Positions 19,927 through 30,231 of a stretch of DNA of 32,000 bases are shown here, one piece after another. This DNA is from Methylophaga frappieri (GTDB taxonomy: Bacteria > Pseudomonadota > Gammaproteobacteria > Nitrosococcales > Methylophagaceae): the NCBI RefSeq assembly GCF_000260965.1, contig NC_017856.1, positions 1,470,001 to 1,502,000 on the forward strand, given 5' to 3'. The position numbers were made by a program, and so were the translations under genes. Position 1 is the first letter of the stretch. Each line of letters starts with the position of its first letter. Below the pieces are notes generated by a model. It saw only the letters and a program-made list of their open reading frames with translations. It had not been told where the DNA came from and did no database searches.

Positions 19927-20908
19927 TTATTTCTCTTTTAAATCCAGTAACTCAAGTGGGCTGACCACACCTTGCGCCCCCTGTTTCAGCACATGCGTAT
20001 AAATTTCGGTTGTTTTTACATCCGCATGTCCAAGTTGCTGCTGTACTGTCCGAATATCTGCACCTGATTGCAACAAATGGGTGGCAAAAGAATGACGCAA
20101 AGTATGGCCTGGTTACCTGCTTCGTAATGCCTGCGTGTTGCGCTGCAGTTTTAATCGCTTTATTCAAACCGCTTTCGTCAAAATGATGCCGTCGAATTTT
20201 ACCAGAACGTGGATCTACCGATAATTTTGAAGCAGGAAACAAATACTGCCACCCCAATTCAAAAGGCTGACCTGGATATTTTCTTGCTAACGCATCAGGC
20301 ATCCAGACACCATCATAATCATCATTTTTAGAATCCAGCTTTAACAGCCTTTCAACACGTTCAATTTCTAATTTCAACGGTTGGTGAAGCTTACCAGCCA
20401 AGGTAACAATCCTGTTTTTTGCCCCTTTACCATCCCATACATGAATTTGACTTAAATCAAATTCAATATCTTTTACCCGCAACCTGACAAGCTCCATCCG
20501 CCTTAAGCCGGAGCCATACAACAGAGAAATCATCAGTTTTTTGACACCCGAAGTCTGCTTGATCAAATCAGCAGTTTCATTAACCGTTAAGACAACAGGC
20601 AACTTTTTCTTACGAGTTGATTTTTTAAAGGCACCCACATACCCAACGTCCTGCTCCAAAAACCTGCGCTTTAAAAATACAAGGGCATTTAAGGCTATCG
20701 ACTGCGTTGCGGCCGACACATTTCGCTTTACAGCAAGGTACGTTAAAAACTTCTCTATATGGTCATCACCCAACTCCCTCGGGTGTTGCTTATCATTAAA
20801 GACTATGAAATATTTAATCCAATACAAATATGTGTCGACCGTTCTGCGACTATAACGCCTGGTCAACATAAAGGACTCAACAGAACCTAAAAATGCAGAT
20901 TTTTTCAT
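19927..20908 (-). pseudogene. intI: integron integrase gene disrupted by a 1-nt frameshift
   Basis: The N-terminal 260+ aa are typical IntI, including the integron-specific extra segment ALARKYPGQPFELGWQYLFPAS and RRHHFDE. After ..ITKQVT (about 20107-20116) the frame is lost. The next frame, from CAT at 20104-20106 to TAA at 19927-19929, encodes [52 protein letters not shown], which holds box II and the catalytic Tyr. Confidence 0.85.
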
Positions 20909-21028
20909 GCGAATTGTCTCTTCCTTGAAACATTAGCTGGTTAAAACATAGCAAAATACTGGCCTTTTAACTCTTAAAATAAAACATTTAACGCCGACTA
21001 AACAATAACTTACATAACACAAAAAGAG

Positions 21029-21094
21029 AATTATAAGGAAGCCCGTTTAATATTTGTTATAAGGCCGCCGGCCTTATAAAACACACTGTTAAGT
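21029..21094 (+). other. candidate attI recombination site
   Basis: GTTAAGT (21088-21094) fits GTTRRRY and lies 7 nt before the first cassette ATG. CCTTATAAAAC-ACACT-GTTAAGT resembles the attI1 L/R arrangement (CCCTAAAAC-AAA-GTTAGGC). TTATAAGG is present three times (21031, 21057, and inverted at 21072-21079), two of these forming a 23-bp perfect palindrome at 21057-21079. Confidence 0.5.
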
Positions 21095-21100
21095 TTACCC

Positions 21101-21565
21101 ATGAATCAGAGCCACGGAATAGAAGCAGATTATTACCTCTATGGAATAGAGCTGGGAATACTTCAATTTGAAGAGGCTATCGCTTGGGCAGATAAAATCA
21201 TCGAATCGGAAGATTTGCCTTCTGGTGAAATCATTGAAGTCGCATTAGGTAGGCCCAGAGGTCGCAATGGAGTTATGGAATCTCTGAAAGAGGTTTTAGG
21301 TGAAAGAAATCTGCAAGTTTCTGGGGCAATGTTACTTTCTGAACTGAGTAATAGGCTCGCGCAGGGAGAGAGTGTCCGATCAGTAGCACGAAAAGCATTG
21401 GATGTTGCGTAGATTACTCAGCTCCCAGAAGAAGTCCGTTGGGAGTTTGATCAAATAGATGATGAACTGTCGCTTGCTGAGCAAGGAATTTATGGTGACG
21501 TTGAGCAATGTAAATCCGAGTTAATAAATTCACTATCTAGGCACAAATGTCGTGAAAAAACTTAA
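21101..21565 (+). pseudogene. cassette 1 hypothetical protein interrupted by an in-frame amber codon
   Basis: The 103-aa ORF stops at TAG 21410-21412. The same frame then stays open for 50 more codons (ITQLPEEVRWEFDQIDDELSLAEQGIYGDVEQCKSELINSLSRHKCREKT) and ends at the TAA inside the attC R'' box (21563-21565), as other cassette ORFs do. Confidence 0.55.
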
Positions 21566-21649
21566 CAAAGCCAAGCACAATCGCCCAATGCAAAAAGCCG
21601 CATTGGGCTGGACCTCGCTGACGCTCGGCCTGTGTTGGCGGCGTTATCT
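21560..21649 (+). repeat. attC site 1
   Basis: R'' ACTTAAC (21560-21566), R' GTTATCT (21643-21649). L''/L' pairing GCCAA(G)CACA / TGTGTTGGC with an extrahelical base, and a central palindrome CCCAATGC..GCATTGGG. Confidence 0.85.
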
Positions 21650-21667
21650 GTAAGAACACGATGAACC

Positions 21668-28531: not shown

Positions 28532-29089
28532 GTGCCAGTATTTGAACCAGAAATAATAATTGCAGGTTTTGCAGCTGTTGCGGCTTGGATAGCAGCATTG
28601 TTTGCGTTTAGAAGCTATCGTGTGTCCAAGCGAGCATTAGAATTGGCAGAGCTTCAAAATGATTCCTTACGATCAAATATTTCTGCCTATTTGGCCGATT
28701 CATTTAGAGCTTATAACTCAGCCTTGAGAGAAGGTAAGTATATATTTTCAATTGCATACGCAAATAAGTCAGAAGCTTCCGACTCTATAACTGAAATAAG
28801 TCTCGAAACCTTTTATGTCAACTCAAAAGATAGGGTTGGCCATTTGATTTCAGCACATGAAGAAAATGCCGAAAAATGGCTGTCTGGCGGCGCAAAGCCC
28901 GCATCACTTCCCATCGTCATTCAACCTCGGTCATCAGTAACCGGATGGTTTGTTTTTGGTATCCCTCCAATTGCTGAGGGATCAAAGCGGGTGGAAAAAT
29001 ATAGGGTGGTAGCGCGAAATGCTAATGGTGAAGAAGTCTCGGTCGAATCATATATTTTACGGGAAATGAAATATGAAGAAATTTCGTAA
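28532..29089 (+). CDS. cassette 10 gene A: membrane-anchored hypothetical protein
   Basis: GTG start, 185 aa. N-terminal TM helix IIIAGFAAVAAWIAALFAF, then a short helical segment and a beta-rich C-terminal region. No recognisable motif. Confidence 0.55.
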   Translation: MPVFEPEIIIAGFAAVAAWIAALFAFRSYRVSKRALELAELQNDSLRSNISAYLADSFRAYNSALREGKYIFSIAYANKSEASDSITEISLETFYVNSKDRVGHLISAHEENAEKWLSGGAKPASLPIVIQPRSSVTGWFVFGIPPIAEGSKRVEKYRVVARNANGEEVSVESYILREMKYEEIS

Positions 29090-29636
29090 AATTTCAGATT
29101 CCTCCCTAGTACCTATTATTAGCGATGGGGCTATAGCTACTCATGAAATAGGTGAGGGGCGTATGGTTCCTGTCTTAGTGGTTGACTGCACAGAAAGAGT
29201 AGAACTTAGAGACCTTATCTATGCCCATGAATATTCGCCTCCTGGAGATGTAACTGTCACATGGGCTGTTCTAAAGAGAGACAAAAGCAGTGTGGCTCTA
29301 TTGCTGGAATTTTCAAGACCGTCAGCTTTAGAGGTGCTATTACAATTCAACATAAAAAAACAAGGTGGCGTAGTAGATGGAATTCTACATGCCAACGCCC
29401 TTTACCTCCAACCCTCGGAATCGGGGTTGAAGGTTGTTGATGGTTTAGACAAGGGTAAGATCCTTGTAGAGATACCTGATACGGGATTTTTACCTGATTG
29501 GGAAAAGCTTTATACGAACAATCTTGTAAAGACGTTTAAAAAGTCAGGATTTTCAAGGCGAGAGGCAAAAGAGGCAGCAGAGCAGCACAAGTCGATGCTA
29601 AGAGAAATCTGGTCTAAACGTATGAAACGTAGCTAA
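29073..29636 (+). CDS. cassette 10 gene B: hypothetical cytoplasmic protein
   Basis: 187 aa. The ATG overlaps the gene A 3' end by 17 nt. Basic helical C-terminus ..SRREAKEAAEQHKSMLREIWSKRMKRS. No attC lies between A and B. Confidence 0.55.
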   Translation: MKKFRKISDSSLVPIISDGAIATHEIGEGRMVPVLVVDCTERVELRDLIYAHEYSPPGDVTVTWAVLKRDKSSVALLLEFSRPSALEVLLQFNIKKQGGVVDGILHANALYLQPSESGLKVVDGLDKGKILVEIPDTGFLPDWEKLYTNNLVKTFKKSGFSRREAKEAAEQHKSMLREIWSKRMKRS

Positions 29637-29638
29637 AT

Positions 29639-29736
29639 GCATAATAAATCAAAGCACGCGGACATGGTAAAACTGTCATCTTTTTTGTTCCAAAAAAGCC
29701 GCCAACTTCATCATGCCGGTGTTTGAGGCGTTAGGC
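29639..29736 (+). repeat. attC site 10 (R'' core degenerate)
   Basis: R'' GCATAAT instead of ..TAAC (29639-29645), R' GTTAGGC (29730-29736). The arms GCATAATAAATCAAA(G)CAC(G)CGG(A)CATG / CATGCCGGTGTTTGAGGCGTTAGGC are complementary. Confidence 0.7.
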
Positions 29737-29741
29737 ACCGC

Positions 29742-30143
29742 ATGAAATCGTTACTAACAAACAATTTATTAATTATACTTCTGGCTTTTTCATGTCTGGT
29801 GGCCGGTATATTAGCCAGTGTTCTTTGGCAAGATTTTGAGTGGGTATCTCGGTCTGGCTCGTTAGTTGTCGGCCTTGGCATCATTTCTCTATCGCGCACA
29901 TTCATCCTAAAGAAAGATCTGCTCCTAGAAATAAAAGCATCCGACAGTGATCTTAATCTCAACGCTCCCGAGTATTACCAAACGAAAAATCAGCCAATTC
30001 CAGACTACGTAGTTCAAGATCAAAACAGTAGGTTTGCTCTCGGTGTAGTCGGCCCGACACTCAGCTTTCTAGGCTCACTAATCTGGGGTTTCGGAGATTT
30101 GCTCAATAAATTTTTCGTTGGGTTCGGTGCAGGCTGTGCTTAA
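29742..30143 (+). CDS. cassette 11: small membrane protein
   Basis: 133 aa with predicted TM helices LLIILLAFSCLVAGILASVLW, SLVVGLGIISL and ALGVVGPTLSFLGSLIWGF. Stop TAA equals the R'' TAA. Confidence 0.55.
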   Translation: MKSLLTNNLLIILLAFSCLVAGILASVLWQDFEWVSRSGSLVVGLGIISLSRTFILKKDLLLEIKASDSDLNLNAPEYYQTKNQPIPDYVVQDQNSRFALGVVGPTLSFLGSLIWGFGDLLNKFFVGFGAGCA

Positions 30144-30231
30144 CAATGCGCTGCAAAGGACGTTTGACCCGTCGCCGATTTTTTGGCATCCACCAAAAAC
30201 GTGGCTGCCTCAAACGCCTCTCAGCTTAGGT
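30138..30231 (+). repeat. attC site 11 (R' crossover G missing)
   Basis: R'' GCTTAAC (30138-30144). The arms GCTGCAAAGGACGTTTGA / TCAAACGCCTCTCAGC are complementary. The R' position reads CTTAGGT (30225-30231) where the other sites read GCGTTAGGT. Confidence 0.6.

Follow-up and report, generated by a model that had tools for sequence, protein, structure and literature searches.

The chromosome of Methylophaga frappieri JAM7, a marine methylotroph, carries a small chromosomal integron, made up of an integrase gene (intI), a recombination site (attI) and eleven cassettes with their attC sites, in which the platform is very likely decaying and the cargo has a toxin-like character. The element was analysed within a 32-kb stretch of this chromosome (contig NC_017856.1), referred to below as the window, and all coordinates are positions in it. 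The integrase gene, a pseudogene, occupies 19927-20908 on the minus strand and is directly adjoined by ubiD (18448-19920, minus). The attI site lies at 21040-21091 on the plus strand, and the cassettes, here called C1 to C11 together with their products, extend from 21089 to 30231. In integrons the substrate of IntI is the bottom strand of an attC site in its folded form, which is recombined with attI or with a second attC. Promoterless cassettes depend for transcription on a promoter close to attI, so that their expression declines with distance, whilst toxin-antitoxin (TA) cassettes bring a promoter with them and make loss of the array costly. An earlier note, made from the letters of this DNA, had described the region as a sedentary-type chromosomal integron between ubiD and chrA, holding eleven cassettes with readable attC sites and a cargo resembling a library of anti-phage or abortive-infection genes.

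The eleven attC sites all lie on the plus strand, at 21560-21649 (attC1), 22568-22642 (attC2), 23480-23582 (attC3), 24280-24340 (attC4), 25149-25241 (attC5), 25811-25901 (attC6), 26598-26687 (attC7), 27430-27519 (attC8), 28431-28513 (attC9), 29639-29736 (attC10) and 30138-30231 (attC11). The last two are altered in their R boxes: R'' of attC10 reads TAAT instead of TAAC, and R' of attC11 reads CTTAGGT, without the G of GTT. A strict regular expression (RYYYAAC/GTTRRRY) found only attC3 and a match in the attI region, and a looser scan together with a covariance model took its place. Aligned plainly with MAFFT, nine of the eleven sites have TAAC/GTTA R boxes that pair, the C-G pair being broken in attC10 and attC11. 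In the same alignment all eight pairs of the L box are Watson-Crick around the bulged base in eight sites, the other three (attC3, attC5 and attC11) being misaligned at this box and not unpaired. The types of L-box pair vary between sites, with GC, CG, AT and TA occurring in the same column, and these are compensatory changes. Unconstrained folds of the bottom strand give the canonical hairpin for most of the sites, with z-scores of -2.3 to -5.2. A covariance model built from the eleven finds no further site in the window (next match E 0.24) and transfers well to other integrons, returning 146 matches at E <= 1e-3 from 47 other integrase loci (834 kb). All 146 foreign matches are placed as in a cassette array, upstream of intI and on the strand opposite to it. 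The eleven sites are thus supported by folds, by covariation and by a transferable model. The genes of C2, C5, C7 and C11 have their stop codons within the TAAC of R'', as does an extended C1 frame discussed below.

The sites are diverse, with lengths of 61-103 nt and a mean pairwise identity of about 60%. Only attC1 and attC7 are alike, at 93-95% over some 90 nt, and the cassettes to which they belong are unrelated; the two form a direct repeat spanning 5 kb. This repeat could permit homologous deletion of cassettes 2-7, or it may point to a common source of the two cassettes.

The integrase gene belongs to the integron family of tyrosine recombinases, which is marked by an IntI-specific insertion, and has suffered a frameshift. 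When its two frames are joined, the product scores 430 bits against TIGR02249 (cut-off 265), and its closest relatives are intact IntI proteins of other Methylophaga (82% identity), followed by those of Porticoccus, Marinobacterium and Nitrincola (60-69%). Of the two frames, that of the open reading frame (ORF) 19952-20908 covers the N-terminal 270 codons, and that of ORF 19927-20100 the catalytic C-terminus (...EIYTHV). The Pfam Phage_integrase domain is split accordingly, its positions 1-128 falling in one frame and 132-171, including the tyrosine of EIYTHV, in the other. Alignment of the DNA with four intact relatives reveals exactly one additional base, an insertion at 20108-20112 (minus strand) with the extra base near 20111. 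Here the window reads GTAACCAGGCCAT, as against GTCAC-AAGCCAT in the relatives; the intact gene of locus L001 encodes KQVTSHTLRH across this region. As a result of the insertion the annotated IntI product of 318 aa is without the box II residues and the catalytic Tyr. The cassette array is therefore probably frozen at present, unless an integrase acts in trans. GenBank lists the 318-aa product as 'Integron integrase IntI4'. Unlike its neighbours it carries no WP_ accession from RefSeq, which would fit a RefSeq pseudogene call. Inactivation seems to have been recent, since the lesion is a single base and nine of the eleven attC sites still look functional.

Decay of the platform extends beyond the integrase. 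Cassette 1 (21089-21643, plus) is annotated with an ORF of 103 aa (21101-21412, Q7C_1472) without a family match, which ends at an in-frame TAG at codon 104 (21410-21412). Beyond this TAG the frame remains open for 50 codons (21413-21565) and ends at the TAA within R'' of attC1. Read most simply, a gene of 154 codons has acquired a nonsense mutation and is probably pseudogenised. At the other end of the array neither attC10 nor attC11 has its R box paired in the folds, and no other site scores as low against the model as attC11 (36.6 bits). Recombination in the class 1 system requires the two partner sites to share the first base of the triplet (PMC2811028), and by that rule attC11 is predicted to recombine poorly with other sites. 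The platform is thus decaying, with an insertion in intI, a premature stop in cassette 1 and damaged R boxes in attC10 and attC11, signs that had been overlooked in the earlier note.

The same three lesions could be read as errors of sequencing or assembly in an integron that is fully active. The extra intI base does sit within a short CC/GG context, and only one genome is available for the strain. Against this, a single element of 10 kb holds lesions of three independent types (an indel, a stop substitution and changes in two attC sites), the reading frames of the flanking genes and of the ten remaining cassette ORFs are unbroken, and the 318-aa product with a GenBank accession and without a WP_ accession fits, by inference, a pseudogene call in RefSeq. 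Artefact as the common source of all the lesions is considered improbable, and genuine decay is the preferred interpretation.

Decay of this kind has precedents. Degenerate integrons in Xanthomonas, and clusters of attC sites lacking integrases (CALINs) with an intI pseudogene nearby, resemble the present locus in having a frameshifted integrase beside a recognisable array, and a pseudogenised cassette. Cury et al. (2016) found intI pseudogenes near 15 of 279 CALINs. The M. frappieri element differs from other degenerate chromosomal integrons in that its integrase lesion is a single base and nine of its eleven attC sites appear functional. The label 'sedentary-type' could not be upheld. According to Cury et al. 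(2016) an integron is sedentary if it is present in 100% of the genomes of a species or has more than 19 attC sites; the array has 11, and M. frappieri is represented by a single genome. Sedentary integrons also tend, as a quantitative matter, to have homogeneous attC sites within the array, in contrast to the identity of about 60% found here. The locus, which is chromosomal and shows no sign of mobility, belongs by the 2016 scheme to the 'other' class, or else is an array that has an intI pseudogene beside it.

The flanks of the element are those of a chromosome. Upstream lie housekeeping genes, namely flgA, an ATP-binding cassette transporter, a DUF2333 gene, moaC, an NAD-dependent formate dehydrogenase, a major facilitator superfamily transporter and ubiD, and no transposase is found among the flanking genes in Pfam and family scans of the window. 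The earlier note was right in calling the integron chromosomal. G+C is 0.48-0.50 in the flanks and 0.39-0.49 in single cassettes. The placement between ubiD and chrA is right for ubiD, which adjoins intI, and needs correction at the other end, where an ORF of 178 aa (30317-30853) stands between attC11 and chrA (TIGR00937 match, start near 31170). This ORF is without a Pfam or NCBIfam family; its N-terminus is hydrophobic and resembles a signal peptide by eye, its G+C is like that of the flanks, and no attC follows it. A ubiD gene within 10 kb of intI occurs at none of 80 related intI loci, so the insertion site is not conserved. An Rfam scan of the window returned no match, Rfam having no attC family, and a literature search found no account of a Methylophaga integron.

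The attI site was delimited by comparison of four Methylophaga integrons, which align from intI through ...AAAACACACTGTTA and diverge immediately after CTGTTA. This break in homology places the crossover, CTG|TTA, between G21088 and T21089. Within attI is a palindrome of 10 bp (21057-21079), which reads TTATAAGGCC-GCC-GGCCTTATAA. Related palindromes, perfect over 8-10 bp with the consensus ATGAGGYC-N3-4-GRCCTCAT, lie 8-12 nt upstream of CTG|TTA in 32 of 75 related integrons (for instance at loci L001, L004, L010, L011, L016 and L035). Across 18 distinct palindrome sequences all 144 of 144 positions pair; three of the eight pairs show compensatory double changes and there is no one-sided change. 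The loop varies in both sequence and length, and the structure does not resemble a terminator. Possible readings are a hairpin or cruciform and a dyad to which a protein binds. No description of this palindrome was found.

The proteins encoded by the cassettes share no sequence similarity with one another. A firm assignment is that of cassette 6 (25236-25895), which is inverted relative to its neighbours and encodes on the minus strand a parD-like gene (25527-25748) overlapping a parE-like gene (25244-25549), in the order antitoxin then toxin. The Pfam matches are strong (ParD-like PF11903, 2e-16; ParE-like PF15781, 9e-39), and on this sequence evidence the cassette is a type II TA addiction module of the ParE/ParD kind; a scan for the parDE promoter gave no consensus match. 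Cassette 9 (27514-28507, plus), with an ORF that is probably 27535-28335 (266 aa), encodes an N-terminal TIR domain (TIR_2, 4e-31 in Pfam) followed by a domain of about 150 aa without an assigned family. Among solved structures its nearest relatives are AbTIR and other TIR NADases of bacteria. The TIR domain aligns over some 93 residues with AbTIR, PdTIR and TcpB, WVQRELD standing opposite WTNYELD of AbTIR. The aligned Glu of this W-x-x-x-E-L motif is the catalytic Glu. C9 is thus an AbTIR-like protein that has kept its catalytic residue, and by its sequence may cleave NAD+. Its PADLOC matches, to the ThsB and PDC-S66 TIR models, cover the TIR domain only (PDC-S66, 6.5e-24), and NCBIfam models for Thoeris and for retron-associated TIR proteins score C9 far below their curated cut-offs. 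C9 differs from AbTIR and ThsB in pairing its N-terminal TIR with the additional C-terminal domain and in having no ThsA-like partner in its cassette; nor is there a SIR2/SLOG or Macro protein in the array.

Of the plus-strand cassettes with less informative cargo, cassette 5 (24335-25235; ORF 24357-25154, 265 aa, Q7C_1476) encodes a DUF5677 protein (PF18928, 6e-25) without a PADLOC match. One DUF5677 protein has been assayed in E. faecalis, and it is absent from the ORFs named as protective. Cassette 10 (28508-29730) holds two ORFs, one at 28532-29089 (185 aa, with an N-terminal transmembrane helix) and one, C10b, at 29073-29636 (187 aa), which overlap by 17 nt as a coupled two-gene unit. Cassette 11 (29731-30231; ORF 29742-30143, 133 aa) encodes a predicted membrane protein. 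No metabolic or resistance family was found among the cassettes in Pfam and NCBIfam scans, and in a PHROGs search of the cassette proteins only the TIR protein matches. These results agree with the earlier note on the TIR domain, the ParE/ParD pair, a translationally coupled cassette and the want of any recognisable metabolic or resistance gene.

A further claim was that five cassettes carry motifs of the HEPN type. HEPN domains have a single sequence hallmark, the pattern R-[NH]-x3-H located in a predicted helix, and a search for R-x4-6-H does match C2, C3, C4, C5 and C8. The same expression also matches the TIR protein and C10b, so that by itself it is near chance, and more can be learned from conservation within families. 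C8 (cassette 26682-27513, plus; ORF probably 26700-27425, 240 aa, Q7C_1482) has 85 homologues without a Pfam family, with R156, H161, E162 and R164 invariant and N157 almost invariant (YRNSLVHELREPGY). C2 (cassette 21644-22636, plus; ORF 21668-22573, 301 aa, Q7C_1473) has 34 homologues, again without a Pfam family; R136, N137 and H141 are invariant (R136-N137-x3-H141), and eight conserved Cys form what resembles a C-terminal zinc ribbon. C3 (cassette 22637-23576, plus; ORF 22655-23473, 272 aa, Q7C_1474) is the representative of a much larger family, with more than 900 homologues (E <= 1e-3; 53-69% identity) distributed from Gammaproteobacteria to Phycisphaerae and WOR-3, in which R163 and H168 (consensus IRNxSIHFNPE), E103, R104 and N107 are invariant. 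Its length is constant at about 275 aa, it has neither Pfam family nor annotation, and its conservation is unusually strong for a mobile gene. By comparison, the motif NRAANFLKHAD of C4 (cassette 23577-24334, plus; ORF 23592-24266, 224 aa, Q7C_1475) is conserved only among six close (65-75%) metagenomic relatives, the protein itself matching no family in Pfam, PADLOC or NCBIfam, and the match in C5 was seen in a single sequence only.

The recurrence of R-N-x3-H among the best-conserved positions of three unrelated families fits a catalytic role, and C2, C3 and C8 may be metal-independent RNases, albeit not demonstrably of the HEPN type. They resemble HEPN RNases (the Abi_C end of AbiJ, MNT-HEPN toxins, Cas13 and Csm6) in the R-[NH]-x3-H motif, which is invariant in all three. 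They differ from them in having no match to a HEPN profile and no match to one another, and the AlphaFold2 model of C8, which is confident (pLDDT 90, pTM 0.86), contains strands. On this model C8 may have an undescribed fold. Two other leads for C8 were dismissed: a PADLOC match to DzbB (E 0.005), judged to be noise, and a link to the FRG domain in which only a YRG motif aligns. Profile searches of the PDB with C2, C3 and C8, and single-sequence searches with C4 and C5, produced no usable match. Hence the motif is present in all five proteins as claimed and is invariant across the families of C2, C3 and C8, whereas the HEPN label itself draws no support from Pfam, PADLOC, PDB profiles or the modelled fold of C8, and C5 is a DUF5677 protein.

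C7 (cassette 25896-26681, plus; ORF 25923-26603, 226 aa) had been credited with the signature of an ADP-ribosyltransferase (ART). In the R-S-E arrangement of these enzymes an Arg lies on strand beta1, Ser-x-Ser/Thr on beta2 and Glu-x-Glu before beta5. The C7 family has 137 representatives, and an alignment of 50 sequences shows R145-G146, E151, F171, E209 and E211 to be invariant, with Q159 and W161 nearly so. The AlphaFold2 model (pLDDT 96.4) consists of an N-terminal helical domain and an ART-like C-terminal domain, in which R145 lies on the first strand (140-148), S-W-S/T on the next (160-162) and ExE before the last (211-214). The best neighbour in the PDB is IcmQ (4eyy_Q, E 0.056, probability 0.66), matched over the full IcmQ length; domains 4-5 of CNFy come tenth (E 2.4). 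IcmQ reportedly contains an NAD+-binding domain. Among viral proteins the best neighbours are unannotated phage proteins, with a Gordonia phage protein at the top (E 9e-5). C7 is thus akin to the R-S-E ARTs (the NAD+-binding domain of IcmQ, Frg and RES) in that its (F/Y)RG, SW(S/T) and ExE motifs sit on the expected strands, and it differs from them in that no Pfam ART, FRG or RES match occurs in the 50 members and the Foldseek match reaches E 0.056 only. A profile search of the PDB gave nothing usable. A proposed FRG link was rejected, as hhalign against one FRG protein aligned the YRG motif only (probability 3%). What remains of the claim is a set of R, S and ExE positions that are invariant and correctly placed, with no Pfam ART match and IcmQ at E 0.056 only. 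On balance the model and the conservation favour an NAD-using ART fold, an assignment that is somewhat probable. Two clades within the ART superfamily, Frg and RES, have been proposed to be antiviral NADases (PMC9503650).

Relatives of the six cassettes looked at (C2, C3, C6, C8, C9 and C10) recur elsewhere, whether as cassettes or in islands of accessory or candidate defence genes. A tblastn search with every cassette protein against 80 related integron loci found only ParDE to be common. A homologue of C2 has an attC on both sides at locus L085, and in Candidatus Thiodiazotropha another is the last gene of an island with integrase, HTH_17 and DUF927 genes. Thalassolituus sp. LLYu03, which is of a different order, encodes a protein in the 90%-identity cluster of C2, which points to recent horizontal movement of this cassette. 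C3 homologues border directly on an attC in each of Vibrio diabolicus, Shewanella cyperi and Algiphilus; in Algiphilus the gene lies between RES-Xre and CcdAB modules. In V. diabolicus (L086, 1-6867) it directly follows an Abi_C gene, with an attC-like site between the two, beside TniQ-Csy2-Csy3-Csy4, which looks like integron-type cassettes within or beside the cargo of a CRISPR-associated Tn7-like transposon. The C6 pair is also inverted at L085, and is 70-89% identical in a Methylophaga integron (L004). C8 homologues occur where small ORFs of one orientation follow one another, together with ParE or PIN/VapB genes, one homologue being near a restriction-modification pair, and a relative of the C9 TIR protein has an attC upstream (L090). 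The C10 pair is found at L089 (353-4715) with at least 90% identity and the same 17-nt overlap, followed by a 57-bit attC and situated downstream of a CBASS-like module made up of SMODS/AGS_C and SLATT_6 genes. At L089 homology to the window begins upstream at TAACAGGGTGTTA, which resembles the attI core of the clade, and no intI is nearby. Together these contexts fit mobile accessory or defence cargo.

By analogy with the cassettes of Vibrio and mobile integrons, several of the cassettes may encode growth-arrest or abortive-infection effectors. That integron cassettes can provide phage defence had been stated in the earlier note, and the literature is real, with Darracq 2025, Kieffer 2025 and Getz 2025 reporting it as cited in PMC12614218. 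In V. cholerae 16 of 88 assayed cassettes of unknown function (18%) were protective, none of them detectable by DefenseFinder; some of the protective cassettes carry only an Abi_C or HEPN-like domain, Taranis and Esos being of that type. Functionally uncharacterised cassettes taken from mobile integrons yielded 13 BRiCs (Kieffer et al. 2025). In a comparison that rests on the published descriptions of these defence cassettes and not on their sequences, the M. frappieri array resembles the sedentary chromosomal integrons (SCIs) of V. cholerae and other Vibrio, among them V. parahaemolyticus, and the BRiCs, in its intI and attI, in its single-function promoterless cassettes with TA modules interspersed, at least one of them inverted, and in its compact proteins missed by DefenseFinder/PADLOC, with HEPN- or Abi-like candidates among them. 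It differs from these in having only 11 cassettes, heterogeneous attC sites, an inactivated integrase and a Methylophaga host.

A number of observations weigh against a decaying integron with toxin-like cargo. At the level of the platform, the frameshift in intI could be an error in the deposited sequence. No consensus sigma-70 cassette promoter (Pc) was found on the plus strand near attI, where inspection by eye picks out only a weak TTACAT-16-TATAAG, and there is no LexA-box-like site in 20909-21100. At the level of the cargo, no HEPN family of Pfam matches C2, C3, C4, C5 or C8 at E <= 0.1; in profile-profile comparisons of C2, C3 and C8 the motif helices do align, at scores that are not significant; and the C8 model has neither a PDB neighbour nor a matching HEPN structure (best Foldseek E 1.8, TM 0.18). 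The ART assignment of C7 leans on a weak structural match, that to IcmQ. A scan with PADLOC-DB v2 of the cassette proteins other than C11 and ParDE recognises only the TIR domain, with C7 and C8 at E 0.005-0.01, and no cassette matches the NCBIfam defence models except the TIR domain, below cut-offs. Adjacency to Abi and CBASS genes is weak evidence within arrays, because neighbours in an integron array are independent modules. Finally, the protective fraction among cassettes of unknown function would by the V. cholerae example be about 18%, and with this base rate the statement that at least eight of the eleven cassettes show hallmarks of toxic or immune effectors is probably too high. The companion statement, that the proteins do not look like named systems, agrees with PADLOC, which finds nothing beyond the TIR domain; in all, only two of the cassettes match known families.

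The integron may accordingly be real and most of its cassettes ordinary genes of unknown function without a role in defence, with only ParDE, as a stabiliser of the array, and perhaps TIR having a function of the suggested kind. The toxin-like appearance would then stem from short motifs and from what the earlier note expected to see. This is a serious possibility, to which a little under an even chance is accorded. It draws on the occurrence of R-x4-6-H in the TIR protein and C10b as well, on the lack of defence-model matches beyond TIR, on the C8 fold, which matches no HEPN structure, on the assayed DUF5677 protein not named among the protective ORFs, and on the 18% figure from V. cholerae. 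It accounts less readily for the presence of R-N-x3-H among the few invariant positions of three independent families, for the invariance of R, S and ExE in C7, and for homologues lying in accessory or defence-type islands outside arrays.

Alternatively, the toxic-looking cassettes could serve mainly as addiction or stabilisation modules, or as antibacterial weapons, and not as phage sensors. ParE/ParD is an addiction module of the classical type, the excision of cassettes from chromosomal integrons is known to be constrained by TA cassettes (Richard 2024, as cited in PMC12614218), and homologues of the cassettes lie among RES-Xre, CcdAB and PIN/VapB modules. By contrast, C2, C3, C7, C8 and C9 are single genes with no antitoxin or immunity gene in their cassettes, a lone toxin that was constitutively active would not be tolerated, and these five proteins have no secretion signal and no secretion genes nearby. 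This explanation is deemed unlikely, and growth-arrest or abortive-infection effectors remain the preferred reading for several of the cassettes.

The idea that integrons carry defence genes is sound and already published, and the integrase had already been named in GenBank; what is new is the list of candidates and the inactivated platform. A bolder proposal, put forward tentatively and with distinctly less than even odds, is that several of the cassettes are the first known representatives of single-cassette immune effectors not yet described, and that the attI dyad is an unnoticed functional element of attI in this clade. The candidates for such founding effectors are C3, C8, C2 with its RNxxxH motif and zinc ribbons, and C7, a compact IcmQ-like protein of the ART fold whose closest fold relatives are phage proteins. 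The C3 family stands out as large, highly conserved and entirely unannotated. The candidate effectors carry defined catalytic-looking residues and recur as mobile cassettes in other bacteria, and the compact candidates (C2, C3, C7, C8, the C9 TIR protein and the C10 pair), at 0.8-1.2 kb each, are cheap to test. For the biology of M. frappieri, the array would represent a snapshot taken soon after loss of the integrase, and it would extend the picture of integrons as defence biobanks from Vibrio and clinical plasmids to a marine methylotroph.

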